Assembly (NCBI GenBank): GCA_965223905.1
Contig: CBDCXV010000009.1
Coordinates: forward strand, 1-64,000
Reading direction: 5' to 3'
DNA: 64,000 nucleotides
From: Candidatus Latescibacterota bacterium
GTDB lineage: Bacteria; Latescibacterota; UBA2968; UBA8231
The first letter of the stretch is position 1. Each line of letters opens with the position of its first letter. This document shows, piece after piece, positions 2-16,107 of this stretch. The position numbers and the translations under genes were made by a program. Under the pieces are notes generated by a model. That model was not told the origin of the DNA. It was given only the letters and a program-made list of their open reading frames with translations, and searched no databases.

Positions 2-1516
2 GAGGGGAACATGCTGTTCTACGACTTCGGCGTCGCCTCCCCCGCGATCTCGGAGAATGTCCGCCGCGCCCGCGGCTTCGCCGCGATGTTCACCGGGGAA
101 GATCCCCGGGCACCCAACTACGATCGCCGGTACCGTATCCTGCGCTCCCCGGTGACGACCAGCCGCGGCCCCCGGCTGCAGGCGGACCGGCACCTCGCAA
201 AGACGCTGCTCACCGCCAGGGACTGGGAGAAGGAGCGGTTCTACGGAATCCGGGCGAGCCTCCACCCTCACGTCGAGGAGCTCGAGCTTGACTGGGACCG
301 CGATCCGCAGCGCCGCGCCGAAATCGTCCGCCTCGCCGGCGAGGTCGTGCTCGACGGGGACGTCCCCCAGAACATGGCGGCCACCGCCCTGGTCGCCAAC
401 GCCTATCTCTACAGCGGCGAGGAGAAGTACCGGCAGTGGGTGCTCGACTACGTCGAGGCCTGGATCGAGCGGATGCGGCGGAACGGGGGCATCATGCCGG
501 ACAACGTCGGGCCCACCGGGGTGATCGGCGAAAACCGCGGCGGCCAGTGGTGGGGCGGGTACTACGGATGGAACAGCCGCTTTTCCCCCCGGATCATGCT
601 CAACGGCACCATCGTCGGCGCCGAGTGCGCCCTGTTGCTGAGCGGGGACTACGGATACCTCGATGTCCTGCGCTCGCAGCTGAACCTGCTGTTCGACAAC
701 GCCGTCAGCGACGGCGACGGCCAGCTCCTGCTGCCCCATCGCTACGGCCCGGACGGCTGGTACCACTTCCGGCGCTTCCGCATTGTCGACGCCGCCCACC
801 TCTGGCACGCCTCGATGGAGCGGCGCGACTACGAGCTGATCGAGCGGCTGCGCGCCGGAGACCGGGAGGGCGACTGGAACCGGCTCGACTCGTTCGGGGA
901 GAAGAACAACCGCGAGGGGGACTCCGAGTACTGCCGCTTCCAGTACTACGACGGCCGCAATCCCGACTGGCCGGTGCAGGTGATGCGGGGAGAGCTGCGC
1001 TACGTGCAGGAAACCGCGGAGGCGATCCGCGCCGATAGCCGCGGCGTCGAGACCATCATCGAAGAGAACCGGAATCCCCCCAATCCCGTGGTGACCAAGG
1101 GACTGACGCAGATGACGACGGGGTCGCCGCACAGCATCTACAACGGCGGCCTGCTGCGGTCGACGGTCCGTCACTTCGACGCCGACGCCCGCCGCCCCGG
1201 CCTGCCGGAAGATGTCGCCGCCTTCGTCGATCTGCTCGAGGCGGAGCGGGTGGGGCTGCAACTGGTGAACACGGGGGCGGCGAACCGCAACCTCGTCCTC
1301 CAGGCCGGAGCCTTCGGCGAGCACAGATTCACCGATCTGATCTGCGGCGATGCAGAGGGAGGCCGGCCGCTGGCAGTAAACTCCAGGCACCTCGCGGTGC
1401 GGCTCCCCCCGGAGACCGGCATCCGCCTCGAGATCGGACTGCGGCGATTCGCCAACCGGCCGGGCTACGCCTTCCCGTGGCACGGCGACAGGATCCCGGT
1501 GCCGTTTCAGCCTTGA
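2..1516 (+). CDS. Conserved hypothetical protein, probably 5'-truncated by the window edge
   Basis: Frame is open from base 2 (ATG at 11), ~500 aa with host-like codon usage, Trp/Tyr/Gly-rich; no family recognised with confidence. Confidence 0.75.
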   Translation, partial: EGNMLFYDFGVASPAISENVRRARGFAAMFTGEDPRAPNYDRRYRILRSPVTTSRGPRLQADRHLAKTLLTARDWEKERFYGIRASLHPHVEELELDWDRDPQRRAEIVRLAGEVVLDGDVPQNMAATALVANAYLYSGEEKYRQWVLDYVEAWIERMRRNGGIMPDNVGPTGVIGENRGGQWWGGYYGWNSRFSPRIMLNGTIVGAECALLLSGDYGYLDVLRSQLNLLFDNAVSDGDGQLLLPHRYGPDGWYHFRRFRIVDAAHLWHASMERRDYELIERLRAGDREGDWNRLDSFGEKNNREGDSEYCRFQYYDGRNPDWPVQVMRGELRYVQETAEAIRADSRGVETIIEENRNPPNPVVTKGLTQMTTGSPHSIYNGGLLRSTVRHFDADARRPGLPEDVAAFVDLLEAERVGLQLVNTGAANRNLVLQAGAFGEHRFTDLICGDAEGGRPLAVNSRHLAVRLPPETGIRLEIGLRRFANRPGYAFPWHGDRIPVPFQP

Positions 1517-1568
1517 GGGGATTTTCCCGGGGCCGTAGCCGGTTCTCCCCCTGCAAGTAGTAGAGTCG

Positions 1569-3209
1569 TGGACTAGCCCTGCGCATGTGGGGCGAACCTG
1601 CCGAAGTGTTGAACGAGGAGTACGCGATCCGGTACATCCCCACGCGTGTGGGGAGAACGAGACCATCGAGACCCTCGACGCGCTCGGCAACGGTACATCC
1701 CCACGCGTGTGGGGAGAACACTACTCGGCAAGCTCGCCGGCGCCCGCAAGGCGGTTCATCCCCACGCGTGTGGGGAGAACTTTCTACTACTTTCCGCTCC
1801 CGGTGCTACCTGAATTACGGTTCATCCCCACGCGTGTGGGGAGAACTTCTCTGCCTCCACCGAACCGAGCATTGTATTTCGGTTCATCCCCACGCGTGTG
1901 GGGAACAACGACATGATTTAATTCCGGACGGTCGACCTGGATAAACGGTTCATCCCCACGCGTGTGGGGAGAACTACGCCATCGCGGCACCGAGCGGCAT
2001 GTCTTTCGGTACATCCCCACGCGTGTGGGGAGAACGATTTCGTCGGTGCGAGACTTCCCGAGCTTCGCGGTTCATCCCCACGCGTGTGGGGAGAACGAGG
2101 ACGGGCTAAACGTGCGAGACGAGGTTCTGATCGGTTCATCCCCACGCGTGTGGGGAGAACGAGGACGGGCTGACGTGCGAGGAGGTTCTGATCGGTTCAT
2201 CCCCACGCGTGTGGGGAGACACTCCATCATGCAGCGGTAGCGTCCAACCCGGCGACGGTTCATCCCCACGCGTGTGGGGAGACACGCCCCCGGGCCCGCC
2301 CGCGAAAGAGGCATCGCCGACGGTTCATCCCCACGCGTGTGGGGAGAACCAGGTCGATCTCGTAGGGGAGGTTGACGGTCTCGGTACATCCCCACGCGTG
2401 TGGGGAGAACGTGGACGCCTACACCGGTCTGCTCGGGTACCGCGGTACATCCCCACGCGTGTGGGGAGAACGGCATGACGGAACTGCTCTGCCTTCTCGA
2501 TTCCGGTACATCCCCACGCGTGTGGGGGAGAACGAACTCACTAAGCGGAAAGGCAACCTCGCTTCCGGTTCATCCCCACGCGTGTGGGGAGACACTCAAC
2601 CTCACCGCGAGTGAAGCTGCGGGCCTGCGGTTCATCCCCACGCGTGTGGGGAGACACGGCATGACGGAACTCTCTGCCATTCTCGATTCCGGTACATCCC
2701 CACGCGTGTGGGGAGAACGAACTCACTAAGCGGAAAGGCAACCTCGCTTCCGGTTCATCCCCACGCGTGTGGGGAGACACGGCTCCCGCCACGGATACGA
2801 CCGTTTTCAAATGCGGTTCATCCCCACGCGTGTGGGGAGACACGGACAGGTCGCCAATGCCGACCTCGTGGCGAACGGTTCATCCCCACGCGTGTGGGGA
2901 GAACGGCATCGGCGGCGGGGTGGAACTGCCCGGATCCGGTACATCCCCACGCGTGTGGGGAGAACGTCTCGTCCGGCACTTTGATCGCAACCAATAACGG
3001 TACATCCCCACGCGTGTGGGGAGAACTGCCGGCATCGCGCTCCGCGGGCGTGATCCGCCGGTACATCCCCACGCGTGTGGGGAGAACGGCTTGAGGGGAA
3101 GCTCGGTACTCGGAGACGACGGTACATCCCCACGCGTGTGGGGAGAACCATCCGCCCGTGCTCGTTATGGGCACCAGTCCCGGTACATCCCCACGCGTGT
3201 GGGGAGAAC
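1569..3209 (-). CRISPR. Type I-E CRISPR array, 27 repeats (one degenerate terminal copy at 1569-1597) and 26 spacers, mostly 32 nt
   Basis: Repeat on + is CGGT[A/T]CATCCCCACGCGTGTGGGGAGAAC (29 nt; - strand GTTCTCCCCACACGCGTGGGGATG[T/A]ACCG) with a ~61-nt period and a CCCCAC/GTGGGG hairpin; adjacent to I-E cas genes; degenerate copy at the low-coordinate end indicates - orientation. Confidence 0.98.
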
Positions 3210-3304
3210 TCCTACAAATTGCATAGGAATAGTGTGGACAGCGCTACATCTTGGAGTCGAGTGCACTTGATATCCGAGCGCCTGCAACCCCAACCAGGCT
3301 ATGC
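3210..3304 (-). promoter_or_regulatory. CRISPR leader region
   Basis: Short non-coding, less GC-rich stretch between the last cas-operon gene and the first uniform repeat, opposite the degenerate end. Confidence 0.7.
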
Positions 3305-4060
3305 TCAGCTCCTGGTAATCTGAGGTACGCCCATCGGGTGGCCGCTCATTGACTGCCCATACAGGCGAACCAAAATCCGTTTCAGATTGACTACATCCTC
3401 TGCATTGTATTCAAGTAACTGCTGCAAGGCACCCGATCGGCCCTTGAGGTGCTCCGCCCATAGTGACCCAGTGTCCGCCCCTGTCAAGTCGGACATCTCA
3501 CGATGAATGCCAAACCTCCTCTCGCACTGTTTCAAACCGCCGCGAAAGCCACGCGAATACAGTTCCAGCCACATATCAAGGTGTGGGTGATCTACACGCG
3601 CTCCCAATTCGCGCCGCAGAAGTGGGAGGTCGAACCGGTCGCCGTTGTAAGAGACGAGAAACTCAACCTTTTCCAAATCCTGTACAAGGTGATGCAGGCT
3701 CGCACCGTTCACGTAGGTCTTGACTTCGTCTTTCCATAGTAGCGCCGCAGTTGTAATTCGATCCCGTGAACTCAGGCCAGTGGTTTCAATGTCGATGAAG
3801 GCGGTGCGACCAGCGATATGGGGCCAAATCCGAACTCGTTCTCCGCAAGGGAGGGTTTGTAGAAAAAACCTCCACGCCTGCCGCTGTAAAGCTGATTGAC
3901 TCGCATCGAGGTGTCTACCAACCCTGCAGGACTTGCCTTTGCCTAAGAATTCTTCCGCTCGCAAGCGCAGATCCCGCCAGCATAAGACACCCTTCCGCCA
4001 CAGTTTCATCTCAGCGGAAACGCCGAGTCCGTCGAGATGACAGAAGGTCCGCTCCAGCAT
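3305..4060 (-). CDS. YprB-like / RNase_H_2 DEDDy 3'-5' exonuclease, CRISPR-associated by position
   Basis: Motifs FIDIETTGL (ExoI), SYNGDRFDLP (ExoII), YNAEDV (ExoIII); start overlaps the cas2 stop (TGATG). Confidence 0.85.
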   Translation of the reverse strand: MLERTFCHLDGLGVSAEMKLWRKGVLCWRDLRLRAEEFLGKGKSCRVGRHLDASQSALQRQAWRFFLQTLPCGERVRIWPHIAGRTAFIDIETTGLSSRDRITTAALLWKDEVKTYVNGASLHHLVQDLEKVEFLVSYNGDRFDLPLLRRELGARVDHPHLDMWLELYSRGFRGGLKQCERRFGIHREMSDLTGADTGSLWAEHLKGRSGALQQLLEYNAEDVVNLKRILVRLYGQSMSGHPMGVPQITRS

Positions 4061-4353
4061 CAGGCTGGTTCAGGCTCTTTCCATTTCTCGGCAATAAGGG
4101 CCAAGCCGCACTCGCTCACGATGCTGCGTGGATTTTGGCCATAGGACTCGACGAAGAAGCCCTGCGCGGAGTCGTCGCTGGAGATCACTAACATTCCCAT
4201 TTCTTGCCCATGCCGCCGAACGTAGGCGATCACATTTTCTCGTGTACGGCGGTTGACTGTGCCAACGAAAACATTGGCACGAGGTTCGATAAACCACCGT
4301 TTTAGGAGACCGCGCACCGCAGGAGGTGTATGACTGGCGACGATGACGGTCAA
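4060..4353 (-). CDS. cas2: Type I-E Cas2
   Basis: 97 aa, PPAVRGLLKRWFIEPRANVFVG typical of Cas2e; TTG start overlaps the cas1 stop. Confidence 0.93.
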   Translation of the reverse strand: MTVIVASHTPPAVRGLLKRWFIEPRANVFVGTVNRRTRENVIAYVRRHGQEMGMLVISSDDSAQGFFVESYGQNPRSIVSECGLALIAEKWKEPEPA

Positions 4354-5183
4354 TGCAAAAGCTCGGAGATATCCCGGGGCATACGACGGAGCAACCGAAC
4401 TTCCTCGATTTTTATTTTCAATAGGGAGAGTACCTGCTTCTCATCCGCATCGGGATCCAGACTCACAGCGTGAAATGCAGCCGGAAGTGTCGTTTCAGGC
4501 TTGTACATATCCGCTATGTCGAAGACAAACGGCAAGGTTCCTCCAAGGTGGATAAAACCGAGTTGCGGCAGGTATCCCATGGAACACACGACGGCCGTTG
4601 TCAGTGCGTACAGTGCAGCATTTGCGGCCGAAACCGCCCGGTTGATATTGTCGGCGAGATGCCAGTTGCTCTTGTCGTACTGGCGTCCTTTCCATGTCAC
4701 ACCGTAACGCCGGCCCATTTCCTCATATAGCCCCTTGACTCTCCGACCTTCCATTCCTCGAAGCTCCTGAATGCCGATGCCGGTTAATTCTTCGCCTGGA
4801 AAGCGCTTGGCAAACATCCGATGGGCGATCTCCCGGCTCTTCGAGCGCGAAGCGCGTTGAGTAGCGTGGTGGCGGGCGTTGTCACTGTCGTGGGTCGGGC
4901 TCACGCCGAATGAGTAGAAATGTGTTCCCTCTTCACCTACCCAGCACACCGGAGTATTGCACTCACTGCAGGCTTTAATCGCCGCGTGTGTAACAGTTGT
5001 TCCGGGTCCGAGCATGAGAGCGCTTAGGGTGGCTATGGGAATTCGTAGGACTGTTCGATCTGCGCCGATCCACTTCACACTGGCATCGTCCACCTCCAAG
5101 CGTCCATGCTCGAGGTAAAGAGGGGTCCAACGTTCCCTTGCCGGTGTCAATGTATCGAGTGGAGGTTTCTCAAAGACGGGCAT
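4350..5183 (-). CDS. cas1: Type I-E Cas1
   Basis: LMLGPGTTVTHAA, LRGMEGRRVK, LGFIH, FVFDIADMYK motifs. Confidence 0.97.
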   Translation of the reverse strand: MPVFEKPPLDTLTPARERWTPLYLEHGRLEVDDASVKWIGADRTVLRIPIATLSALMLGPGTTVTHAAIKACSECNTPVCWVGEEGTHFYSFGVSPTHDSDNARHHATQRASRSKSREIAHRMFAKRFPGEELTGIGIQELRGMEGRRVKGLYEEMGRRYGVTWKGRQYDKSNWHLADNINRAVSAANAALYALTTAVVCSMGYLPQLGFIHLGGTLPFVFDIADMYKPETTLPAAFHAVSLDPDADEKQVLSLLKIKIEEVRLLRRMPRDISELLH

Positions 5184-5195
5184 CAGGCTGCCCTG

Positions 5196-5894
5196 CTATT
5201 CTGCCTCGAGTTCGTCCGGGCTGCCTGTCCAAACTCTCCGGGGCTGGTTTCGTTGAGAAGAATCGAAGACGGCGACGAGCGGGACATCCATCAATGTATC
5301 CGTACCGTCTTCGAATCTGTCGACTTCCCTGACCAAGCGGACGAGGTATCCGCCTGAGTGGTTGGTCAGATGATCGATGGCCTCGTCTCGAGAGCGGTGC
5401 AGCCCCTGGCAAATGAGGTCGGCGGGCAAGCAGCATTTTCGCCCCAGCCACACACCCCACTTGGGATCAAACAGTGCCGCCTCGCAACGCCGGAGGAGCG
5501 ATACCTGACCCGTGAGCACAGCACCAAAGGCCGCATCTGCAAGGTACTCCCGTTCTGTCAGAACAGTACCTTTCGGCTTGCCGTCTTCGGCAGTGGTGGG
5601 AATGAATCCGCCCTCCGTTTCGCGATTGTAGCCGCCGCCAACGGTGTGATAGTCTCCCCAGAGGGTCAGTCGGTGCTTCTTCTCGAAAACAAGAATCTCC
5701 ATGGACAGTTCTGCGAGTGTCTCCAGCATAGTCTGGTCAGCGCGCTGGACCCCCATGGCCGCACACAGGATTCCCGTGATACCGCTTCTCGTGGGGTACG
5801 GTAGTGTTGTTCGACGATTATATCGGCTTGAAATTCCCCATGATTGCATCGGTCCATCAAGATACAGCGCCAGGACCTCGCTCTCAGGTGACAT
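5196..5894 (-). CDS. cas5: Type I-E Cas5 (CasD)
   Basis: LDGPMQSWG, PTRSGITGILCAAMG, DYHTV, REYLADA, LGRKCC; start placed at ATG 5894 overlapping the cas7 end. Confidence 0.95.
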   Translation of the reverse strand: MSPESEVLALYLDGPMQSWGISSRYNRRTTLPYPTRSGITGILCAAMGVQRADQTMLETLAELSMEILVFEKKHRLTLWGDYHTVGGGYNRETEGGFIPTTAEDGKPKGTVLTEREYLADAAFGAVLTGQVSLLRRCEAALFDPKWGVWLGRKCCLPADLICQGLHRSRDEAIDHLTNHSGGYLVRLVREVDRFEDGTDTLMDVPLVAVFDSSQRNQPRRVWTGSPDELEAE

Positions 5895-6951
5895 GACTGA
5901 CCAAACCTTTGATCTGAGCATCGAGGGTGATTTCAGGTACGCGGTACGCCGTGCCATCAAGGCCGTACGTCTTTTTCAGGGTTTCGTAATGTTCCTCGAG
6001 GGCCTCGCGGGATTTTTCAACCAGTCCGTCGGAGGACCAGATCGGCTTCTCGAAGGCATTCGCGAGGGAAAGAGGTTGACCCGACTTCCGGTGAAGACCC
6101 AGTATGAACTGCGGTCTCGTGGCGGCGAACATTGAAGTGTGACGGGCGCTCGGCACCGCTTCCACAATTGCCCTAAGAAAGGTTGTAACGACCGCTTTGC
6201 GATCATCCGGCGTGAGATGATGCAAGTGATCTTTATCGGCAAGAAGGTCCAGGTTGATTCCTGCATACCGGTAATAGCAGGCAGCATTGAACTCCAGGGT
6301 CCCCATGTGTCCGGCGCCTTCGGACTCGTCAGGTTTCAAGTCATCAACTGCCGTGAAGAAATCGATCTCGTTGCTCACGCGATGAGTCGAAATGGCATGG
6401 CTGAAGAATGCGGCACCCTCCAGAGTTAGAGAATGGTCGTCGGCCACCATACGGCCAAACATGGCAATGTCGGCCATGTCGCGCGGGCGTGTCTCACCAA
6501 GGGCCTTTTTCAAATTTCCTCGCTTGAGCTGGACTTTCTCACTTTCCTCAATGTCCCGAACTGCGGCGTCGGCAATCGCTTCGATTTCTCCAGGCGATAA
6601 ATAAAGTGCTACGGCGGACTTGTGCGCGTCTTTGTATTTCTTGTCCTGCTTGCCGAGGAAAGTCACAATGCTGGCGCTCTCCTCTCGGGCTATTTTCGGA
6701 TCGACTCCCTTCGATAGGAGGGTGTGCTCGAGTTTCTCGGCAGCGAAATGCCCTCGCTGTCCAGCAAAATGCTCTGGCGAGTTGTAACGCGCGTGCAGGC
6801 GGATCGCACGTTTCCAGGACTGGCTCGACACACGCGCCCGCGGTGCACCGCCGAATACCGCCGTTTTGGGTGCGCCTACATCGTCGCGATTGAGGCAGGA
6901 CACCGGAAAAGATTGCACGATGTGCAGCTCGATGAGTTCCATGGATTCCAT
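5884..6951 (-). CDS. cas7: Type I-E Cas7 (Cse4/CasC)
   Basis: LNRDDVGAPKTAVFGG, RVSSQSWKRAIR, DIAMFGRMVA, DFFTAVDD motifs. Confidence 0.97.
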   Translation of the reverse strand: MESMELIELHIVQSFPVSCLNRDDVGAPKTAVFGGAPRARVSSQSWKRAIRLHARYNSPEHFAGQRGHFAAEKLEHTLLSKGVDPKIAREESASIVTFLGKQDKKYKDAHKSAVALYLSPGEIEAIADAAVRDIEESEKVQLKRGNLKKALGETRPRDMADIAMFGRMVADDHSLTLEGAAFFSHAISTHRVSNEIDFFTAVDDLKPDESEGAGHMGTLEFNAACYYRYAGINLDLLADKDHLHHLTPDDRKAVVTTFLRAIVEAVPSARHTSMFAATRPQFILGLHRKSGQPLSLANAFEKPIWSSDGLVEKSREALEEHYETLKKTYGLDGTAYRVPEITLDAQIKGLVSHVT

Positions 6952-6982
6952 CTCCTACTCTATCTGTGTGTCGCGTCCCGTG

Positions 6983-7387
6983 TTATTCCTCCGACTTCTG
7001 GAGATAACGCGCCCCAAGAGCGAAAATCTCGGCGGCGGCCAGGACCGCATTGTTGGCATCTGTCCGGTCGGGATCGGCAGTCTCACCCGGATAGCGCACT
7101 TGCACTGCATATTCGGAGAGTTGCGAGCATACCTCTCGGAATTGATCCAGTTCGGGTACCAGACGTGCCGACCTTTCCAGCAGCGGCATCAGATCGTGGA
7201 TGCGTTGGTACTGCACGCCCGCAGCCGTGAGGATCGCCTTGAGGGTCTTTTCCGCGGTCTGCTGTGAGTGGAAGCACGATATGTCGGTGGGACCGTCCTC
7301 AGCATCGAGAACAAGCCGTGCAGTGAAGAGGTCGTGACGGGCCTTCTCCAGCCACTGTGCCGCGAGCGCTTTATCCAGATCGTTCAT
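6983..7387 (-). CDS. HEPN domain protein (COG2250-like)
   Basis: 134 aa; WLEKARHDL, CFHSQQTAEKTLKA, RIHDL, RYPG pattern; overlaps the upstream MNT by 17 nt. Confidence 0.9.
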   Translation of the reverse strand: MNDLDKALAAQWLEKARHDLFTARLVLDAEDGPTDISCFHSQQTAEKTLKAILTAAGVQYQRIHDLMPLLERSARLVPELDQFREVCSQLSEYAVQVRYPGETADPDRTDANNAVLAAAEIFALGARYLQKSEE

Positions 7388-7748
7388 ATACGACGTTCCC
7401 TCGATCGAAGACCTCCGTCACGATATGGTTTGTCGTGCCCCGCCACTTCTCGACTTCGGCTGGCGTGTAGACCAGGATGTCCATGGGGCAAGGGTACGGA
7501 GAGAACAGCAGGCGAATCGGGGCGGCCCGCTTGTGGCGCGGCAGGGTGGAATCCATGACCACCAGCAGATCGAGGTCGCTGTCTTGACCGGTCCGCCCGG
7601 TGGCCGCCGAACCGAACAGGACGATCATTTCAGGATCGCAGTTATGCACGATCGCGCTTATGACACTGTCGATGACATCAGGTGCGATCACAGCCTCTTG
7701 ATCTGGTATCGCCGGCGCCCGCGTCCCTTTCCGAGGCGAGATGTTCAT
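7371..7748 (-). CDS. Minimal nucleotidyltransferase (MNT, Pol beta superfamily)
   Basis: VLFGSAATGRTGQDSDLDLLVV (GS-x10-DxD) and a downstream D in MDILVYTP; ATG 7748 overlaps the cas6 stop (ATGA). Confidence 0.92.
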   Translation of the reverse strand: MNISPRKGTRAPAIPDQEAVIAPDVIDSVISAIVHNCDPEMIVLFGSAATGRTGQDSDLDLLVVMDSTLPRHKRAAPIRLLFSPYPCPMDILVYTPAEVEKWRGTTNHIVTEVFDRGNVVYERSG

Positions 7749-8386
7749 GGCGCGTGGCCGCCATTCTCTGCGCTGGTTGCTTTCAGAAGCAGGAGGCCGA
7801 ACCCGAACGCCTTGGCCGGTCCGACTCCTTTCCGGTACGTCTCGTCGAAGCGTTGCTGGTCCGTAACCGTCAGTATGCCATCGTAATCCACGCGAGCGTG
7901 TGTTATGCGCTGTTTCTTGCGCCAGGAGGTCTGGTCCACGGGCGGCGATACTCGCAGGTGAGCACCCTCTATACTGAACCCGCCTGACTTGCTCTTGCGG
8001 TCCAACCACGCCCGCAGCTCGGCCGGATCGCAGACCCGCGTGCGACGGCCATTTCGCTTGCGCGCCCCGCTTTCACCCTCGCGGACGACCCGTTTGACGG
8101 TGGGATTCGCACGTAACGAAAAAAAGTAGCGTTCACGGCTCAGGAACCTCGGGGCTACAGAACGCGTCTCCCACACGCCCCACTTCTGCGACGCCGGCGC
8201 AGTCGGGGACAGCATCAACGTTTCGAAGACATCGCGATGTACGTCCGTGCGGCTCAGGAACTCGCGCTCTTGACCATCCTGTCCGGGAAACGCCTTCCAA
8301 AGCTGCTGATGCCACGCATACGCATCCGACAATGCCATACTCAGGGCTTCGGTCTGATCAACGCGAATCCGGGTGAGAAACATCAC
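7745..8386 (-). CDS. cas6: Type I-E Cas6 (Cse3/CasE)
   Basis: YAWHQQLWKAFP, FSLRANPT, C-terminal glycine loop GVGPAKAFGFGLL. Confidence 0.96.
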   Translation of the reverse strand: MMFLTRIRVDQTEALSMALSDAYAWHQQLWKAFPGQDGQEREFLSRTDVHRDVFETLMLSPTAPASQKWGVWETRSVAPRFLSRERYFFSLRANPTVKRVVREGESGARKRNGRRTRVCDPAELRAWLDRKSKSGGFSIEGAHLRVSPPVDQTSWRKKQRITHARVDYDGILTVTDQQRFDETYRKGVGPAKAFGFGLLLLKATSAENGGHAP

Positions 8387-8913
8387 TCAGTCTCCTCAGA
8401 ATCGGCCGGAGGCACACTACCCCAGAATTCGGACGCCCATCGTACTTTGGTCCCCTCACGGGGTTCCGGCCAGCGAAAAGAGCGAAGGTCTCGAAACAAC
8501 TGTTCGTAGTCGACCGGAATCCCTTTCTGTTTGGCAGCACGCACAATTTCACCACTACGGTGGCATATATCCGCAACCGAGTCACACACCAACAGCCGAC
8601 GAAATCGGGCATCGAATGACTCCAGTCCCTTCTGCTCGTCCTGCCCCATGGCAATGAGTCGCATGACGGAACCAAGCCCGCCTTTGCCTCCCGGCTCCGG
8701 GTGGGAGGCAAAGGCGGCGGCAACGGCTATGTGAATCCCGCGCTCGTCGTCTTTCTCGAACAGACGACCGCACCAGCGCGCGATATGAGGCCAAGCCCGG
8801 TACGCTCTATCCGCTGCAAAGCCGTGGCGCAGATCGGCCATCATTCCACGATCCTCACGATTACGGTCCAGCCACTCTATGAAATGGCGAGCATGGTCTT
8901 GAGATTGTGTCAT
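8383..8913 (-). CDS. cse2: Type I-E Cas11 (Cse2/CasB)
   Basis: DRGMMADLR, RFRRLL, VDYEQLFRDL, VRWASEFW; lies between cas8e and cas6 with overlapping start/stop codons. Confidence 0.9.
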   Translation of the reverse strand: MTQSQDHARHFIEWLDRNREDRGMMADLRHGFAADRAYRAWPHIARWCGRLFEKDDERGIHIAVAAAFASHPEPGGKGGLGSVMRLIAMGQDEQKGLESFDARFRRLLVCDSVADICHRSGEIVRAAKQKGIPVDYEQLFRDLRSFRWPEPREGTKVRWASEFWGSVPPADSEETE

Positions 8914-10373
8914 GCTGCCTCTGCGTCGAGTTGGCCGGATTGATGCCTCAGAACGAGCTTACGCTGTCCAAGGGCGAATGCCTGGATCTGTCGAGGGGTA
9001 GTATGGGGACATTCGGCCCTATACGAACGAATCATAGCACTCCTTACAGTAACGATCCATTGGTTCAAACTTGCGTCATCGGAACAGGCTTCTTGCGTAA
9101 GTAGATCGCACACGCTGTCCAGTATGCTCCAATAGGTTCGAACCGCTCGCTGTCGGTACCCAATTGCCACGTCAGATTTGGTGGTTTGCAAGGTCTCAGA
9201 ATACACTTTGATCCCCCATTTCAGCATCTTTTCGCCCTCGTCGGCAAAAAAGACACCGTTCTCGTACACCGCCATCTTCTGGTCTCCGAGCAATTCTGTG
9301 GGCACAGAGAAGGTCCATTCGGCGGCATCCAGCACTTTACCCTTGTCGGCTGCAAGTCCGCCGAGCCATACATCCACCACTCCTTGGTCGAAACCAATGG
9401 CGAGATTTGATAACGCGAGTGGCCCGCCGACTTTCGCGGCACCTTTGACTGCCAAGACGCTCGGGGCTTCTCGCCAGGGATGTTTGGCCAGATCGACCCT
9501 GATATACGCGTACTCATCGTCACCTTTCCGATTTCGACGCAGCGCAACGGTAGCCATGGGGTCACGGCTGATCGGCAGCTTTGGGTAGACAAGCCCGTTC
9601 GCCAATGTGCATTTCTTTCTGCCTGCGATTCGGATAGCTCGGGAGAGCGGGACAAGCCGACCGAGATAGGTTGAGGAAATCCCTTCAGTACGATCCGGAC
9701 GTTCAAGCCGTTCAACCGGTATATCCCATACTGGTATGCCGATCTCGCAGGGCATTCTGGTTTTTGGCACAAGATTGAGATGAACGGTGCTAAGAAGGTC
9801 TTCCTTTCTCAAGATCGCATGCAACGCGGATCCCTCGACGCAGGGCGCGTGTTCGGAATGCCGGCCCGTGAGATTGCCTGACCATCGTGTCTCGCCAATC
9901 GTGCCGCCGGGCGAGAAACTTTGGTACGTCACCAAATTGAGCACTACCCTTCCTGGCGACAGCTCTCTACGTTTCGTTGAACCGCCATGGTCGAACAGGG
10001 TGTCGTTGTTCCCCGAAGCCAATCCGAAATCCAGTTTATCGAGTGTTGCGTTATCAGTTGGCTCCAGATTTGGCACCTGCAAGAAGGGCCGCTCTCCGAA
10101 CAGCTCGAATCGGTCTGTGCGTACATCAAGATACTTGAGGCTCGCCGGGACAATTCGCTCGCGGCACGCCAGCCAATCCGCTTCGTCTTCGGGGCCGTCG
10201 AGAGCAGCGTGGGTAATGCACAGGAGCAATCTGGTTACGGCGATTCGCTGGGGTGGCTGCAACGCCAGGTCACGGATCTCGTGCGCCCGCTCGAACAGCT
10301 CTTGGAGCCCTACCTGCCGGGAACGTCCCTCGCCGTCGATTACGGGGATCCAGGGCTCACCAATCAGATTCAT
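8910..10373 (-). CDS. cse1: Type I-E Cas8e (Cse1/CasA)
   Basis: MNLIGEPWIPV start, RFELFGERPFLQ, SGNNDTLFDH. Confidence 0.93.
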   Translation of the reverse strand: MNLIGEPWIPVIDGEGRSRQVGLQELFERAHEIRDLALQPPQRIAVTRLLLCITHAALDGPEDEADWLACRERIVPASLKYLDVRTDRFELFGERPFLQVPNLEPTDNATLDKLDFGLASGNNDTLFDHGGSTKRRELSPGRVVLNLVTYQSFSPGGTIGETRWSGNLTGRHSEHAPCVEGSALHAILRKEDLLSTVHLNLVPKTRMPCEIGIPVWDIPVERLERPDRTEGISSTYLGRLVPLSRAIRIAGRKKCTLANGLVYPKLPISRDPMATVALRRNRKGDDEYAYIRVDLAKHPWREAPSVLAVKGAAKVGGPLALSNLAIGFDQGVVDVWLGGLAADKGKVLDAAEWTFSVPTELLGDQKMAVYENGVFFADEGEKMLKWGIKVYSETLQTTKSDVAIGYRQRAVRTYWSILDSVCDLLTQEACSDDASLNQWIVTVRSAMIRSYRAECPHTTPRQIQAFALGQRKLVLRHQSGQLDAEAA

Positions 10374-12668
10374 TGAAATCGCCTTCCCACATGTCCTCGG
10401 CCGGCTCGACAGCGGCGTCCTCGCGCCGCCAGACACCCCGGTCATCCTTGTAGCCATATCGGGTGCCCTGGCCGTCCAGGTTCTCAAGGAAGCCCTGGCT
10501 GTTGATTTTCAGTACCACGACAGGCCCGTACACCGTGCTACGTAACCAACGGGGCGTAGATCGTTCATTGGCATTCTCGAAGTCAGGGTATTTCGGCAGC
10601 GTTACGAGATTCCCGTGCACTTGGCGGGCAGCCGCGACATCGCGGCGCGCGCCTGCTTCCCACACCAACTCGACCGTCTCGCCACTCGCTAGTTCGAGTC
10701 GCGCTCGCGACGAGTCCATCTGGTCGCAGTCTCTCACCAGCAACACTTTGACCATGGATCTATCGTCGTACCGAGTCAAGGCCGCATCTTCATCATCCGA
10801 CCGGGTAGGCAGATCGTCTCGCGTCATAGCCATGGCCAATTGACCCAACCTGCACTTTTTCTCCGCAAGGTGATCATACAAATCTCGCACCCAGGGCGGT
10901 TCAGTAGTGCCCGACTGGCAATACGTGGCTTCAAGCAGAGTGCGGATCTCGTCCGGCAGCAGGACCTCCGGCCTGTCTTGCCAGACTGTGTAACTTCTCC
11001 ACAGCACATAAGGAGCATACACGTAGCCTGACGATCCGACGAGCTCCTTGAGCTCTCTTTGATCGCGGGCGCTGGAAAGACGGTTCCCGGCGATCAGGCA
11101 GGTTGCCCGGCCCGTTCTGCCCTCCCGCGGGTGGCGCCACAACCTGCCCATGCGCTGAAGCAGCATGTCGGTAGGCGCGAGATCCGTGATCAGCATGTCG
11201 CCGTCGATATCCACGCTCTGCTCGACCACCTGCGTGGCGACGAGAACGCACCCTGATGGGCGGTCACCCTCCTTGCCCAGCCGTGAAAGCCACAGCGTCT
11301 CGAGCTCATCGCGGCGCCAGGGAGGAAATCTCGAGTGCAGCAGCCCTACCTCGATCCCTTCCCTCACAGTGCTCTTCACCAAACCGAAAGCCCTCTGGCT
11401 CCGCGCGACGGTGTTGCAGATCCAGAGCGCGCACTGTCCACTATCAGCCAGATCAGCGGCTTGATCAGCCAGGGTTATCAAACTGTCAGGTACGTAACGA
11501 CACTCAACCCTGCGGGACGCCGGTGGGGGAGTCGTACGCGTAGTGACCTCGTTGCCCGATTGATGGGTGATAAGGGGATACGCCTCGGCTTTTCCATGTC
11601 GGTCCGCACCTGAAAAAAACTCGTTTCGTTTTTCCCGCGTGAGCGTTGCCGATAGTATCATCACCGTGCACTCCAGGCGTAGCAGGCAGTCCACGAGATG
11701 CCTTATCAAGGTGCCCGTGTAAGCGTCGTACGAGTGTACCTCGTCGAGGATGACGACTTTTCCTGCCAAGCCGAATGCTCGCACGAAACCGTGCTTGACG
11801 TTCATCACGGCGAGGAGCGCCTGATCGATGGTGCCGACTCCAAACGGATAGAGTAAGGCTCGTTTGATGGGAGCGAACCACGCACCGCCTGGACGGAGCT
11901 CTTCCCCTCCCGGGTATTGGTCGGCCAACCACGCTTGACCGTGAACGAGGCGTGCGCCCGCCCCGACGCCAAACGCCTGATCGATAAACGCCGCCAAACG
12001 ACTGCGAAGACGGTTGCTCGTCAACCGCGTCGGCAGGGCAAAATAGACACCGTGGTGATGGCCGGCAGCCATCAGCCGATAGGCCGCATACAGCGCGGCT
12101 TCGGTCTTGCCCGTACCCATCGGTGCTTCCAGAATAAACAGGCCTGGGCGATCGGCGAGTTCGTGAACCACGGCCTGCATCTCATTTGGTGACGATATGG
12201 CGGGAAACAGGTCTTCGAACGAACACCCTCGTCTGACCTCGGGGATTGCAAACCCTGCATCCTCCAGCGCGTAGCGGGCGCACGCTCCGTGATCGGCAGT
12301 CTGGGGCAACCCTTCAGCAGGAAACCAGTTTTCGTTCGAGCCGATCCAATCCGCCACCGTTGTCAGTCCCGCTGCGAGCCACAGGGACTCCGGGGTGGGA
12401 GACTTCTCCGGCAGCGGGCCGAACGCCTCGATGAGCACCTCCAGCAGCTTTGACCGTTCCGCCGACCAGCTTTGGCCACCGTAGGGGAAACAAGGCTCTC
12501 GTGCAGCTGACTGGGTCCGTTTGCCGTGGTGCACCCCTGCCACTTGAGACCATGACTGCCACGTTTCGTCACGACCGTGGCTATATCCCCAAGTTCGAAT
12601 GGCTGCTTCACTGACCTCTGCATGGTTCGCGCAGAACATGGCAGGCGTGGAGGTCGTTACAGCTTTCC

Positions 12669-14338
12669 CCTGAATCCGTGATCACTTCTATAGCAAATGG
12701 TCAAGTTTGATATTTAGCATGATCAGGCACTTCTCAACAGAGGATTTGGGTGTCAACGACTCGCCATTACGGCTGATGCCGCTGTCGGTGGCTCTCGACG
12801 TCGGCTGGAGTCGCAAGAACGGGCATACAGGTGCCTTGCGTACGGCGGAGAGTCGAGTGCGGGTGAGATCGTCGCCTTCAGGTGCACACACGCAGGTAGG
12901 TCCGTCTCCAGACATCGAACCAGGGATTGAAACACCCGAAGCTGAGGCCGAAACGGCGCGCATGCCGGACCCAGCGGGCCGCTTGGTACATGAGATCGAG
13001 AAGGACGCTGCGGAGACGACGACGGCCGGCCTTTTTACGAAAAGCCACGTGCTTTTCGGGGGGCAGATTGCCGGACTCGCGCAGACCGATTTGGCCGCAC
13101 AGGCGCAGAGCGTTGTAGGCCATCATGGCCAGCAGCAGCAGGAGCGCGTTGGTGGCGAACTTGCCCGACGGCAGGCGTTCCAGATCCAGGTCCGTTTTCA
13201 ACTCGGAGTGGAATTGCTCGCAGGTGCTGTGCTCGCGGTAGAGCCGGATCACGTGCGCCGGCGGCGCCATCAGGTTGGTCCACCAGGTCTGCACCTCGAT
13301 TTCGGGGATCAGCAGCGCCTGACCGTCGACGCTGATCGTGCGCCGCACGACCTCGTAAACGACGCGTTCGAAGGTGTCCTTGCGCTCGCACACCAGCGAG
13401 CCGGTGAAGATCTCCTTGCCGGGCCGCGGACAGGTGCGCTCGCCCAGGGCTTCGGCGTCCTCCAGCCAGGTCTGTTTCGATTCGCTGCGCAGGTTGCGTT
13501 TGACGATGAAGTCGGTCTTGGGAGTGCGGCGCAACTGCTGTACGGTGGCGATGTCGTCATGGGCGCTGTCCATGCGCACCAGCAGCTTTTCCTTGGTGAT
13601 GCGGCGCGCCAGCCGCAGCGTCTCTCGAATAAAGTCCGGGGCTCCTTCCTGGGAGTGCTGACTGCCTTCGCGCAGCTGGCAGTTGAGCAGATACCCTTCC
13701 TCGCCCAGGTAGGCGAAGATCGGGGCAAAGCCGTCGACCTTCTTGTAGGTCCACGACACCCCTTGTTTTTTGGTGTGGGAGTTGTCGAACACCGACACGT
13801 CGATATCCAGCGCGATCCAGGGACCGTAGCGCCCGTCGGCGACTTCGTAACAGGGGGTGAGCGGCGGCGCGTGACGGGCCACCATGTCGGCCGACTCCTC
13901 TCGAATGGCGGTCTCCCCCTGTGCGCCCAAGCCATCGAGCCGCTGCCGCAGCGTGGCCGCCGACGGCACCGCATCCAGGCCCAGGGCCTGGGCGAAGAAG
14001 GGATCGGTGCGAAACGCTTCCACCGCCTCGAAATCCGGCTTGCCCAGCGCCAGCAAGCCGATCATCGACGTCATCACGTCGCCGTGAGAAACCTCGGGGC
14101 AGGGTCGCTCCGGCAAGAGGATTTCATCCACCCGCGCGGCCAAGCGCGTGCGTCCCATCAAGGCCCCGATCAAGGCCAAGCCCGAATGCGAGGTCAGCGC
14201 TTCTTCGCCCTGCGTAACTTCATACGAAACCAGTCGCAATTCTTCACCTCCAAGGTGAGTGGATATCCTCCTCTAAGATAGCCCACATTCCCCTCGGAAA
14301 ACCACCGAAAATCAAGCTCTGGACTTCACGGATTCAGG
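12669..14338 (-). mobile_element. IS1380-family insertion sequence, 1670 bp
   Basis: 13-bp perfect terminal inverted repeats CCTGAATCCGTGA (12669-12681 / 14326-14338); CTTTCC duplicated at 12663-12668 and 14339-14344. Confidence 0.93.
12878..14239 (-). CDS. IS1380-family DDE transposase
   Basis: 453 aa; LTSHSGL, PSAATLRQRL, LDID, VRMDS, EQFHSELKTD, LPSGKFATN. Confidence 0.93.
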   Translation of the reverse strand: MRLVSYEVTQGEEALTSHSGLALIGALMGRTRLAARVDEILLPERPCPEVSHGDVMTSMIGLLALGKPDFEAVEAFRTDPFFAQALGLDAVPSAATLRQRLDGLGAQGETAIREESADMVARHAPPLTPCYEVADGRYGPWIALDIDVSVFDNSHTKKQGVSWTYKKVDGFAPIFAYLGEEGYLLNCQLREGSQHSQEGAPDFIRETLRLARRITKEKLLVRMDSAHDDIATVQQLRRTPKTDFIVKRNLRSESKQTWLEDAEALGERTCPRPGKEIFTGSLVCERKDTFERVVYEVVRRTISVDGQALLIPEIEVQTWWTNLMAPPAHVIRLYREHSTCEQFHSELKTDLDLERLPSGKFATNALLLLLAMMAYNALRLCGQIGLRESGNLPPEKHVAFRKKAGRRRLRSVLLDLMYQAARWVRHARRFGLSFGCFNPWFDVWRRTYLRVCT

Positions 14339-14790
14339 CTTTCCGTAACAGTAGCTTTGGGAAATACTTGGCCAAGAAACCTGGCGAGACTTTGCCCAGG
14401 TCATGGCAGGCTGCCAGTGTGGCGGAACCATCCGGAAACAGGCGCCGTACCGGTCCGGGGGTCTGGTCCAATAGTGCCTGAGCCACCGAACCCACGATCC
14501 TGCAGTGCTGCTCAACGGATAGCCCTGGGCAATTGGATTCCGTGGACTTCGCTGGACAGTCTTGGAAGGGCAGGGCTGGCTGCTTCTGATTTACACCTTT
14601 GGCGAATCTCGGCATTTGTCAAATAACCGTGTGAAGGCGGGATTTTCGACGAGGTCACCGGTCCGTGCCGGCGATGCGACGCAGGGAATAAACTGTCCGG
14701 CCCGCACCCAGGCGAGAACCCTCGCTTGCCGCCTTCCGGATGGTGCGTTAGCATCCTGCGAACCTCCCTCGGAACAAACCACCGAAGACC

Positions 14791-15147
14791 ATGATCGACG
14801 CCGCCCAGGTATCGCAGTGGCTCGGGCAGCTCAGGCGGGGCGTGCTCACCCCGGCTGACCTCGAGCAGGCCCTCGCCCGCCTGAAACAGGACCGCTCCCC
14901 GGCAGTACAGCGGCTGCTTTATCTCCAGACCCACACCACCGACCTCGAGTCTCCCGTCATCGGCATGGCCATCGTCGACGGCGCGGTGGTGCTCGACGCG
15001 CCGGACGACCCGGACGACTGGCCCTACAAGACCGTCCTCGAGGCGATGAGCGACGGCTGGCGCATCGTCAAGTTTCCCGAGATGGCCCTGGCCTACCTCG
15101 ATCCCGACTACGGGGGCATGAAATGGGAATTCATACTCGAGAAATGA
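14791..15147 (+). CDS. Small hypothetical protein coupled to the downstream PhyH gene
   Basis: 118 aa, host-like codons, ATGA overlap with the next gene. Confidence 0.75.
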   Translation: MIDAAQVSQWLGQLRRGVLTPADLEQALARLKQDRSPAVQRLLYLQTHTTDLESPVIGMAIVDGAVVLDAPDDPDDWPYKTVLEAMSDGWRIVKFPEMALAYLDPDYGGMKWEFILEK

Positions 15148-15980
15148 ACGGCGCCGTGGTCGCCGGCCAGACCTGGGACTGCCCGCCCACCCTCGACGAC
15201 CGGCAGGTGATGGATTTCTGCAGAAGGGGCTACGTGATGCTCGAGGAGGTGGTCCCGGACGAGGTCAACCGCCGCACCGTAGAGTTCCTCGACGAGCACG
15301 ACTCCCCGGAGCCGTCGGAGATCCTCGACGAGGACTGGTTCGCAGAAGGGGTGATCCGCAACCCGGAAGGGGCCGGGGCGGTGCGCTCCCTGCTCGGCAA
15401 GGACTTCGTGCTGCCGGCGCTGATGGCCAACCACCGGGTCGAGTGCCCGGCGCCGGCCCTCAACTGGCACCAGGACGGCGGCTCGCTGCTGACCCCCCGG
15501 GTCGACTACCTGCAGGTGTTCTACTACCCCGAGGATGTGCCGAGAGAGATGGGCCCGACCGAGATACTGCCGGGAAGCCACCTGAAGCGGGGCTACGGCG
15601 GCATCCTCAGCAGGCTGCGGAGCGTGCGCGACTCGGTTCTCACGATCGCGCCGGCCGGAACCATATTCCTGACCTGCTACACGATCTGGCACCGCCGCAG
15701 CGCCAGCACCGGCAGCGGCATCCGCAACAACCTCAAGTACAACTACTGGCGCACCTCCGAGCCCTGCCGCGACTGGAAAACCGATCCCGGCTTCAGCTTT
15801 TCCTGGCCGGCCAACGAGTTTCCCGGATTCACCGTTCCTTCGGCGCAGATGCTCGTCTGGCTGTGCGGCGAGGAGTGGGAGCACATGGGCGGCCAGGCGT
15901 GGCCCTGCTTCTCGGAGAAGGTCCACGACCACGACCAGCAGGGGCTTCCCGCCGGGTTTCGCCGGCCTGGGCGGGGGTGA
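15144..15980 (+). CDS. Phytanoyl-CoA dioxygenase (PhyH) family Fe/2OG enzyme
   Basis: WHQD, ILPGSH, distal WHR. Confidence 0.88.
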   Translation: MNGAVVAGQTWDCPPTLDDRQVMDFCRRGYVMLEEVVPDEVNRRTVEFLDEHDSPEPSEILDEDWFAEGVIRNPEGAGAVRSLLGKDFVLPALMANHRVECPAPALNWHQDGGSLLTPRVDYLQVFYYPEDVPREMGPTEILPGSHLKRGYGGILSRLRSVRDSVLTIAPAGTIFLTCYTIWHRRSASTGSGIRNNLKYNYWRTSEPCRDWKTDPGFSFSWPANEFPGFTVPSAQMLVWLCGEEWEHMGGQAWPCFSEKVHDHDQQGLPAGFRRPGRG

Positions 15981-16107
15981 GGGTCGGGCCGGAACAGCTG
16001 TTTGCTGCCTGCTCTGGCGGTTGTCCTGGGGCTTTTGGCCGGTTGTCTCGATGGACTGCCGAGGAAGGGTGTCCCCTTCAGGTCGGCGAAGATTTTACTG
16101 GGAGGTT

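Follow-up and report, generated by a model that had tools for sequence, protein, structure and literature searches.

HEPN/MNT modules and toxin-antitoxin units within operons

Two-gene modules that join a HEPN-domain protein to a minimal nucleotidyltransferase (MNT) fall into two classes in the available text of Yao et al. 2020 (PMC7641770). Class I comprises the characterised type VII HepT/MntA systems, in which the HEPN protein belongs to DUF86 or PF08780 and carries the motif RX4HXY, while Class II HEPN proteins belong to PF05168, lack RX4HXY, have a conserved tyrosine and adjoin an MNT with the motif GSX10DXD. Class II modules, first predicted as COG1708/COG2250 by Makarova et al. 2009 (PMC2701414, available text), have been described as commonest in archaea and thermophiles, and Yao et al. 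used 9,583 Class II sequences for their motif scan. The text of Yao et al. points to a lack of biochemical work on Class II and calls for its status as toxin-antitoxin to be validated, and a literature search found no later paper on Class II biochemistry. The present study concerns one MNT-HEPN pair, located inside the type I-E Cascade operon of a Candidatus Latescibacterota bacterium (assembly GCA_965223905.1, contig CBDCXV010000009.1, positions 1 to 64,000 of the forward strand; this whole stretch of 64,000 nucleotides is referred to below as the window).

Precedents exist both for such modules entering operons and for toxin-antitoxin units residing in CRISPR-Cas loci. An MNT-HEPN module has been inserted into the lysine operon of T. 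thermophilus HB8 and not of HB27 (PMC2701414, available text), and CreTA is a CRISPR-repressed RNA toxin-antitoxin nested in the type I-B cas operon of Haloarcula hispanica (PMC12737573). The 2025 classification, in its available text, recognises the type I-E variants I-E2, I-E3 and I-E5, none of them with MNT-HEPN genes (PMC12669027). No description of a MNT-HEPN pair inside a type I-E operon was found in the literature, where the supplementary tables of PMC7641770, PMC3710099 and PMC12669027 could list such loci. The kinds of unit to which the locus relates, Class II HEPN/MNT cassettes and toxin-antitoxin units lodged in cas operons, are both known.

The arrangement is real, it is conserved across two genera and it is rare. 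The explanation favoured here, with modest confidence, is that a mobile, toxin-antitoxin-like Class II cassette entered this type I-E lineage through a single capture, between cas6e and cas7e, has since been inherited with the operon, and is co-expressed with Cascade while acting autonomously.

A Class II pair between cas6e and cas7e

All genes of the type I-E locus lie on the minus strand of the window, and the assignment to type I-E follows from five Cascade genes and Cas3 that match I-E models, together with an array of 29-nucleotide (nt) repeats. An initial annotation of the DNA had placed an MNT and a HEPN gene between cas6 and cas7 of this operon, and both the coordinates and the profile matches agree with that placement (Table 1). 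The MNT start codon (ATG, 7748-7746) shares the letters ATGA with the cas6e stop codon (TGA, 7747-7745), and the start of HEPN overlaps the end of MNT by 17 nt, exactly as had been annotated. The annotated gap of 31 nt between the HEPN stop and cas7e holds for the first ATG of cas7e (6951) and becomes 40 nt for the second (6942). The second ATG is likely the true start, judging from the protein that it would give, since this begins 'MELIELH', as homologues begin 'M(E/K)LIELH', and a GGAG lies 9 nt upstream.

No insertion sequence (IS) ends or repeats flank the pair, and neither terminal repeats nor a target duplication nor an adjoining transposase was found there; with a 4-nt overlap with cas6e on one side and a gap of 31-40 nt to cas7e on the other, the room for such ends is lacking, as the initial annotation had recognised. 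Its companion statement, that the pair has no room for a promoter of its own, is valid for the intergenic DNA and does not extend to cas6e, within which a promoter is possible. Consensus scanning of positions 5800-15200 for sigma-70-like sites gave 0 against 2.7 expected, which says nothing either way, and an equally uninformative scan gave 5 terminator-like sites against 7.6 expected. The GC content of the pair is 59%, compared to 55-61% for the cas operon and 67-69% for the flanks.

Judged by sequence, the pair is a Class II HEPN/MNT module in which every defining feature is present. The MNT protein carries the annotated GS-x10-DxD motif as G46-S47, ten residues and D58-L-D60; across 30 aligned sequences G46, S47, S57, D58 and D60 are invariant and D90 is nearly so, and the N-terminal 'MN.SP' is common to the free-standing relatives described below. 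PF05168 is the sole HEPN-family Pfam match of the HEPN protein, which matches neither DUF86/PF01934 nor PF08780, the families of the characterised toxins. As annotated, it contains RIHDL and RYP and no R-x4-6-H motif, R98 being followed by six residues and then by D105 in the position of the histidine. In an alignment of 31 HEPN sequences Q42, Q43, E46, K47, K50, R98 and Y99 are invariant, and D19, H40 and H64 are nearly invariant. The gene order is also that of Class II, with MNT first and HEPN adjoining it, and the 17-nt overlap of the window is shared by free-standing relatives. Defence-system searches added little: with PADLOC the MNT matched the candidate systems PDC-S09 and PDC-M05A weakly only and the HEPN had no match, and PHROGs yielded nothing useful for the pair.

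Conservation of the position among type I-E loci

The position of the pair was compared among 16 type I-E loci with a Cas6e match, drawn from 970 genomes of three phyla (G000 denotes the window's own genome, and labels of the form G0xx and L0xx denote comparison genomes and loci). Within the phylum of the window, as delimited for this comparison, Cas6e was identified in 6 of 168 genomes. Two of these, G000 and G022, a member of the same family but of another genus, have the gene order cse2-cas6e-MNT-HEPN-cas7e-cas5e, while in four genomes of genus g19 cas6e is followed directly by cas7e (TAA, 12-13 nt containing GGAG, then ATG) with no insert. Seven type I-E loci were found among the 401 sampled genomes of the phylum of G168 (Terriglobia), four with the cas6e-cas7e order and no insert and three with the E. 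coli order, and all three loci from the 401 sampled genomes of the phylum of G572 (Chloroflexota) have the E. coli order. Overall, the pair is present in 2 of the 16 loci and in 2 of the 10 that have the cas6e-cas7e order.

The cas6e-MNT-HEPN-cas7e synteny that the initial annotation had suggested seeking elsewhere is thus found in a second genus, and the objection that no other type I-E locus has the pair at this position falls away. In G022 the genes are packed more tightly than in the window, with MNT beginning 4 nt after the cas6e stop, a 14-nt overlap between MNT and HEPN, and a spacing of 1 nt between the HEPN stop and cas7e. Nothing is missing from the G022 locus, which has an intact cas3 as well as cas1, cas2 and an array with some 20 or more repeats. 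Between G000 and G022 the proteins are 63% (MNT), 53% (HEPN), 55% (Cas6e) and 57% (Cas7e) identical.

Relatives, mobility and phylogeny of the pair

About eight MNT-then-HEPN pairs occur in the window's own genome. The nearest paralogue is only 38% identical, and a recent duplication of an own-genome paralogue was therefore rejected as the source of the embedded pair. One MNT paralogue (L014, G000:C9:413007-413303) has no detectable HEPN within 1.5 kb and resembles an orphan antitoxin gene. Across the 168 genomes of the phylum, close HEPN relatives (E <=1e-25) are patchily distributed, occurring in 13 genomes and free-standing in 11 of these 13.

The closest relatives of all lie outside the phylum. 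They are free-standing pairs in five genomes of Bryobacterales/Terriglobia (Acidobacteriota), with HEPN 79-83% and MNT 75-80% identical to the window, and they sit in differing neighbourhoods; in one free-standing copy (L038) the HEPN is frameshifted. No Cas6e match was found in the four of these five genomes that were tested. Relatives this close are present in only 2 of the 401 sampled genomes of the phylum to which these Acidobacteriota relatives belong. A scan of metagenome contigs with the HEPN retrieved two loci, 41-46% identical and of no use for synteny, and phage records gave no match at 1e-6. Plasmid records gave 65 matches, all from Bacillus, all below 60% identity and none covering 80% of the query, and this search provides no evidence of plasmid carriage of the subfamily.

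A maximum-likelihood tree of concatenated MNT and HEPN was built from 36 pairs (LG+G4, midpoint-rooted), leaving out second loci at the same place and loci in which the MNT or HEPN match was missing or shorter than 90 residues (L006, L008, L014, L023, L028, L032, L038, L041 and L057). The tree has the form (G022 embedded, (window embedded, four Acidobacteriota free-standing)), with ultrafast bootstrap values of 99 and 100, and the free-standing Acidobacteriota pairs are therefore nested inside the cas-embedded clade. Since free-standing sisters exist, the module must be able to work without Cascade.

Comparison of the window with the Acidobacteriota copies gave ratios of nonsynonymous to synonymous substitution (dN/dS) of 0.10-0.16 for HEPN and 0.24-0.35 for MNT, values which indicate, from sequence divergence, that both genes are under purifying selection. 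This bears on the possibility that the pair is a neutral passenger, an inconsequential insertion awaiting deletion. Such an origin would suit its rarity among type I-E loci, the frameshifted HEPN of L038 and the decay of both locus and pair in a congeneric genome (G002, see below). However, the dN/dS values stay far under 1, neither gene has been disrupted in the window or in G022 although the proteins of the two have diverged by about 45%, and none of the family-invariant residues has been lost, so a neutral passenger is considered very improbable.

Decay at the chromosomal site and in cas3

The type I-E locus forms a 13-kb island (window positions 1541-14685) between conserved flanks (1-1541, and 14685 onwards). 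The flanks are joined with nothing between them in G001, a genome of the same genus (L077), and in a second copy of the neighbourhood, 95-96% identical, in the window's own assembly (G000:C1, L078). The two copies in one assembly may represent a segmental duplication or two co-assembled strains (contamination 5.11%).

In G002, which belongs to the same genus, the same chromosomal site (L076, G002:C1:4875000-4893000, positions 1084-6700) holds a remnant of the locus. It opens with the initial 12 codons of cas3, which lead in frame, by way of 8 further codons, into an MNT gene that is 86% identical to that of the window at the nucleotide level and has one frameshift after '...DSTLPR'; about 17 HEPN codons follow. 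Beyond this stub lies unrelated DNA with a different truncated Cas3 (HD and DEAD domains, 683 aa, 30% identical) and an IS1595 transposase, and the site looks like a defence-island hot spot. The joint of the remnant, 7712 to 14580, was seen in one contig of each of four sequencing runs. Because the remnant occupies the same chromosomal site, the embedded pair predates the split between G000 and G002. Toxin-antitoxin modules usually decay by losing the toxin and keeping the antitoxin, and the G002 pattern, with MNT kept and HEPN lost, fits this order.

In all four runs contig depth over the MNT core (7491-7871) exceeded the depth over adjoining cas genes by a factor of 5 to 30. This excess shows that the samples contain near-identical MNT sequence from other, more abundant organisms, the G002-type remnant among them.

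The initial annotation had also described Cas3 as broken, which is correct: the HD domain is split by an IS1380-family element that is 1670 bp long, ends in perfect inverted repeats of 13 nt and is flanked by the direct repeat CTTTCC. The cas3 reading frame continues across the element, and the window contains no intact Cas3. Among the matches listed, the genome holds five full-length copies of the element at 100% identity and four at 89-92%. An uninterrupted cas3 allele is represented in runs X1, X3 and X5, whose contigs connect 12661 directly with 14338. In run X2, which may be the sample behind the assembly and in that case would not be independent, a contig passes from cas3 into the element without difference. 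The identical copies and the empty-site contigs together indicate that the break is recent and polymorphic. Arrival of the pair with the IS1380 element was rejected as an origin, as the element is 5 kb away inside cas3 and absent from G022. The break says nothing about why the pair is there, and the earlier suggestion that the pair could matter more because Cas3 is broken is weak, given that G022 has the pair with an intact cas3.

A further suggestion of the initial annotation was that the pair may guard the cas operon as an addiction module or act as a dormancy or abortive effector. Under this explanation the pair would have been domesticated as a fail-safe of Cascade, a protein analogue of CreTA/CrePA that brings about addiction to the operon or abortive infection: disturbance of the Cascade message by deletion, polar insertion, an anti-CRISPR or phage shut-off would free HEPN and arrest growth. 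Precedents are provided by CreTA (PMC12737573) and by the hypothesis that immunity and suicide are coupled (PMC3506569, PMC3632139). The explanation gains from the shared position of the pair in two genera with tight, and in G022 tighter, coupling to its neighbours, from purifying selection on both genes, and from the coexistence of the pair in G022 with a presumably working system that has an intact cas3 and at least 20 repeats. The in-frame fusion in G002 is also what might be expected if the antitoxin was needed while HEPN was still present.

However, several observations run counter to a role tied to Cascade. The pair is missing from 14 of the 16 type I-E loci, including 8 of the 10 with the same gene order, and its nearest relatives, which form a free-standing clade nested among the embedded pairs and come from genomes without Cas6e, lie outside any cas context, so that Cascade is evidently not needed. 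G002 lost the genes from cas3 to cas6e, and HEPN with them, regardless of the pair; the pair therefore did not prevent loss of Cascade genes. The organism of the window copes with an IS in cas3, a gene that lies upstream in the same string. No CreA-like degenerate repeat was found, on either strand of 3251-16000, at 19 or more matches out of 29 (shuffled sequences gave 0-1), and a covalent, enzymatic antitoxin would offer no obvious means of release when expression stops. Nothing in the data supports a functional link to Cascade, and domestication as a fail-safe is regarded as unlikely. Its most specific form appears less likely again: a translationally coupled fail-safe of one type I-E lineage, in which HEPN would be AMPylated only as long as the Cascade message is made and would upon release become a dormancy-inducing RNase. 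In that case the cas3(1-12)-MNT fusion of G002 would be a scar of selection for antitoxin expression during decay.

Candidate active site and fold of the HEPN protein

The AlphaFold2 model of HEPN (pLDDT 91.7) has helices at residues 3-28, 34-55, 66-76, 78-95 and 108-133. R98 is placed at the head of the loop that follows helix 78-95, H64 in a loop of residues 56-65 that separates helix 34-55 from helix 66-76, and E46 in the second helix. According to Anantharaman et al. 2013 (PMC3710099), the arginine of Rx4-6H sits where the loop behind the third helix begins, and the 'alternative' histidine of AF0298-like HEPN-T proteins and AbiV lies in an insert between helices 2 and 3. In the model, the arrangement of R98, H64 and E46 is that of this AF0298/AbiV-type alternative active site, a known variant which explains why the R-x4-6-H motif is absent. 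The best Foldseek matches of the model are TT1696 (1ufb), ST0689 (1wol), the sacsin HEPN domain (3o10), 4nqf and AF0298 (2hsb), with TM-scores of 0.67/0.71 against 2hsb.

A complex of MNT and HEPN was weakly predicted, with a score of 0.45 compared to 0.00 for the best of three controls, contact agreement between runs of at least 86% and partner pLDDT of at least 88. Of 80 solved complexes 58 reach the mark used for such predictions, as do 2 of 110 mismatched pairs; only 7 of the 80 solved complexes and both of the mismatches that passed reached it with a score of 0.60 or below.

An alternative is that the pair is not a toxin-antitoxin module. MNT and HEPN would then be two subunits of one nucleotidyltransferase, the HEPN subunit binding the substrate in the manner known from kanamycin nucleotidyltransferase. 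The target of the enzyme would be a small molecule, a protein or RNA, and the enzyme would stand in the operon either by chance or for the sake of some modification step. HEPN was first recognised as kin to the substrate-binding domain of polymerase-beta-type nucleotidyltransferases (PMC3710099), the protein studied here is without the RNase motif RX4H, its best fold matches are not toxins but HEPN proteins from structural genomics and the HEPN domain of sacsin, and Class II has never, in the available text of PMC7641770, been validated as toxin-antitoxin. The alternative is nevertheless judged improbable. The three residues R98, H64 and E46 are conserved where PMC3710099 puts the alternative RNase site, and the invariant tyrosine beside the arginine mirrors the AMPylated tyrosine of HepT (PMC7641770, available text). 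In addition, the multi-copy, patchy and horizontally moving distribution of the pair is that of toxin-antitoxin cassettes, and in G002 HEPN was lost and MNT stayed, in the usual order of decay for such modules.

Proposed capture of an autonomous cassette

Under the favoured explanation, capture of an autonomous Class II cassette, the pair is most likely transcribed with Cascade, as suggested by the lack of intergenic space of its own. Translation of MNT would be coupled to that of cas6e through ATGA, considering that no Shine-Dalgarno sequence precedes the MNT ATG in the window, and HEPN would be coupled internally to MNT through the 17-nt overlap. By analogy with type VII HepT/MntA, in which a toxic HEPN is neutralised through oligoAMPylation of a tyrosine by MNT, the MNT of the window may AMPylate the invariant Tyr99, which adjoins the candidate active site of HEPN, and this modification would keep a growth-arresting HEPN RNase silent; unmodified HEPN would use R98, H64 and E46. 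The cassette would persist because its loss is difficult, and as a side effect it may stabilise the operon's middle part; it would be neither a subunit nor a regulator of Cascade.

Several points weigh against this explanation. In the available text of PMC7641770 no experiment shows a Class II HEPN to be toxic or AMPylated, and the resemblance to type VII is limited: the NCBIfam MntA equivalog model NF047752 gives 33.9 bits on MNT, below its cutoff of 60, no NCBIfam model matches HEPN, and the characterised HepT toxins 7ae8, 7ae2 and 7bxo reach TM-scores of only 0.47-0.60 to the HEPN model in Foldseek. Retention at the same site, together with the tighter packing in G022, could mean that the operon gains something specific from the pair. 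The census, at 16 loci, is small. Finally, parsimony does not discriminate between a single capture with a later escape and two captures made independently, as each requires two changes; a single capture is preferred because the pair occupies the same site in operons that are homologous to each other, has diverged to the same extent as Cas6e and Cas7e, and has the GC content of the cas operon.

Other features of the locus

The remaining genes of the locus are listed in Table 1. The open frame of cse1 extends to 10487, and its likely start is the ATG at 10373, which gives a 17-nt overlap with the cas3 stop. The exonuclease-like gene behind cas2 begins at the cas2 stop and has no counterpart in the G022 locus; it brings to mind the Cas2-DnaQ fusions known in some type I-E systems. 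In the CRISPR array two repeat variants (GGTTCAT and GGTACAT) alternate blockwise, and a 71-nt repeat-spacer-repeat unit is present twice at 100% identity (2525-2595 and 2710-2780), indicating that one spacer was duplicated. In the left flank, a protein of 501 aa (11-1516, plus strand) has no Pfam match and lies in the protein atlas near DUF8034-like clusters of several phyla (score 0.95).

Table 1. Features of the type I-E locus in window coordinates, listed from the cas3 end to the array.
Feature	Position	Strand	Evidence
cas3 N-terminal fragment (HD domain start)	14334-14615	-	PF18019 positions 3-76
IS1380-family insertion sequence, splits cas3	12669-14338	.	transposase NF033539 1.3e-102
cas3 remainder (HD end and helicase)	10357-12639	-	PF18019 positions 99-207, PF22590, TIGR01587
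cse1/cas8e	8910-10373	-	PF09481 4.6e-66 from residue 40 of the long open reading frame
cse2/cas11	8383-8913	-	TIGR02548 6.2e-19
cas6e (casE/cse3), upstream of the pair	7745-8386	-	TIGR01907 1.3e-38, PF08798 1.7e-43
MNT minimal nucleotidyltransferase, 125 aa, putative antitoxin/AMPylase	7371-7748	-	PF01909 3e-9, PF18765 8.5e-9
HEPN, 134 aa, PF05168/HEPN-T class, putative toxin	6983-7387	-	PF05168 1.8e-24
cas7e (casC/cse4), downstream of the pair	5884-6951	-	TIGR01869 8e-84, PF09344 1e-99
cas5e, true start probably downstream of 5960	5196-5960	-	TIGR01868 1.7e-38 from residue 29
cas1	4350-5183	-	named from position and 79% identity to G022 cas1
cas2	4060-4353	-	named from position and 68% identity to G022 cas2
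RNase_H_2/DEDDh-like exonuclease gene behind cas2	3305-4060	-	PF13482 5.3e-29; PADLOC 'DEDDh, CAS associated' 9e-6
CRISPR array, ~27 repeats of 29 nt, spacers ~32 nt	1580-3215	-	26 copies at ~61-nt spacing

Comparison with known systems and significance

Class II modules are very abundant, and this locus is a natural setting in which one of them is locked into a well-understood operon. It offers three natural states for comparison, with an intact cas3 (G022), with a cas3 split by an IS (the window) and with an MNT-only remnant (G002), as well as the free-standing sisters. Together these make it possible to test whether a Class II HEPN is a toxin neutralised by AMPylation, and whether a protein pair can stabilise or back up a CRISPR operon as CreTA does. 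Even if the pair is only a captured selfish cassette, it is a clean example of entry into an operon without transposon ends.

Like other Class II modules, the pair combines PF01909 with PF05168, has MNT upstream, consists of small overlapping genes, and belongs to a family with many copies per genome and a patchy distribution. It differs from them in lacking flanking intergenic DNA of its own and in lying inside a type I-E effector operon. With type VII HepT/MntA systems it shares the MNT-then-HEPN order, the GSx10DxD motif and a tyrosine beside a basic active-site residue that could take AMP. However, the type VII toxin is a DUF86/PF01934 protein with RX4HXY, while the HEPN of the window belongs to PF05168 and resembles the HepT toxins at TM-scores of about 0.5-0.6, and the MntA model stays below its cutoff. 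A HEPN-MNT system of A. flos-aquae reportedly lies in a cyanobacterial type I-D neighbourhood.

Among units associated with CRISPR-Cas systems, CreTA is likewise a toxin-antitoxin inside a type I effector cluster and is the source of the idea of addiction to Cascade; it differs in consisting of RNAs, with a crRNA-like antitoxin that needs Cascade, while the present pair consists of proteins that are also found without Cascade. The ancillary CARF-HEPN RNases Csm6 and Csx1, and further HEPN genes of CRISPR loci, similarly tie HEPN domains to CRISPR effector genes and have been associated with the idea of suicide or dormancy as a back-up (PMC3710099, PMC3632139), but they form part of type III systems, with cyclic oligoadenylate as their switch. 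Going by its name only, a chain of PDB entry 9z7q called 'Cmr1-MntA', on which no paper was found, suggests that MntA-type domains can fuse to type III effector subunits.

In its manner of insertion, the pair resembles the lysine-operon module of T. thermophilus, a MNT-HEPN cassette that also stands in the middle of an unrelated operon with no visible transposon ends, and the best structural match of the window HEPN, TT1696 (1ufb), is itself a protein of T. thermophilus HB8. The two cases differ in that the T. thermophilus insertion is strain-specific and affects a metabolic operon, while the insertion described here lies in a defence operon and is conserved across genera.

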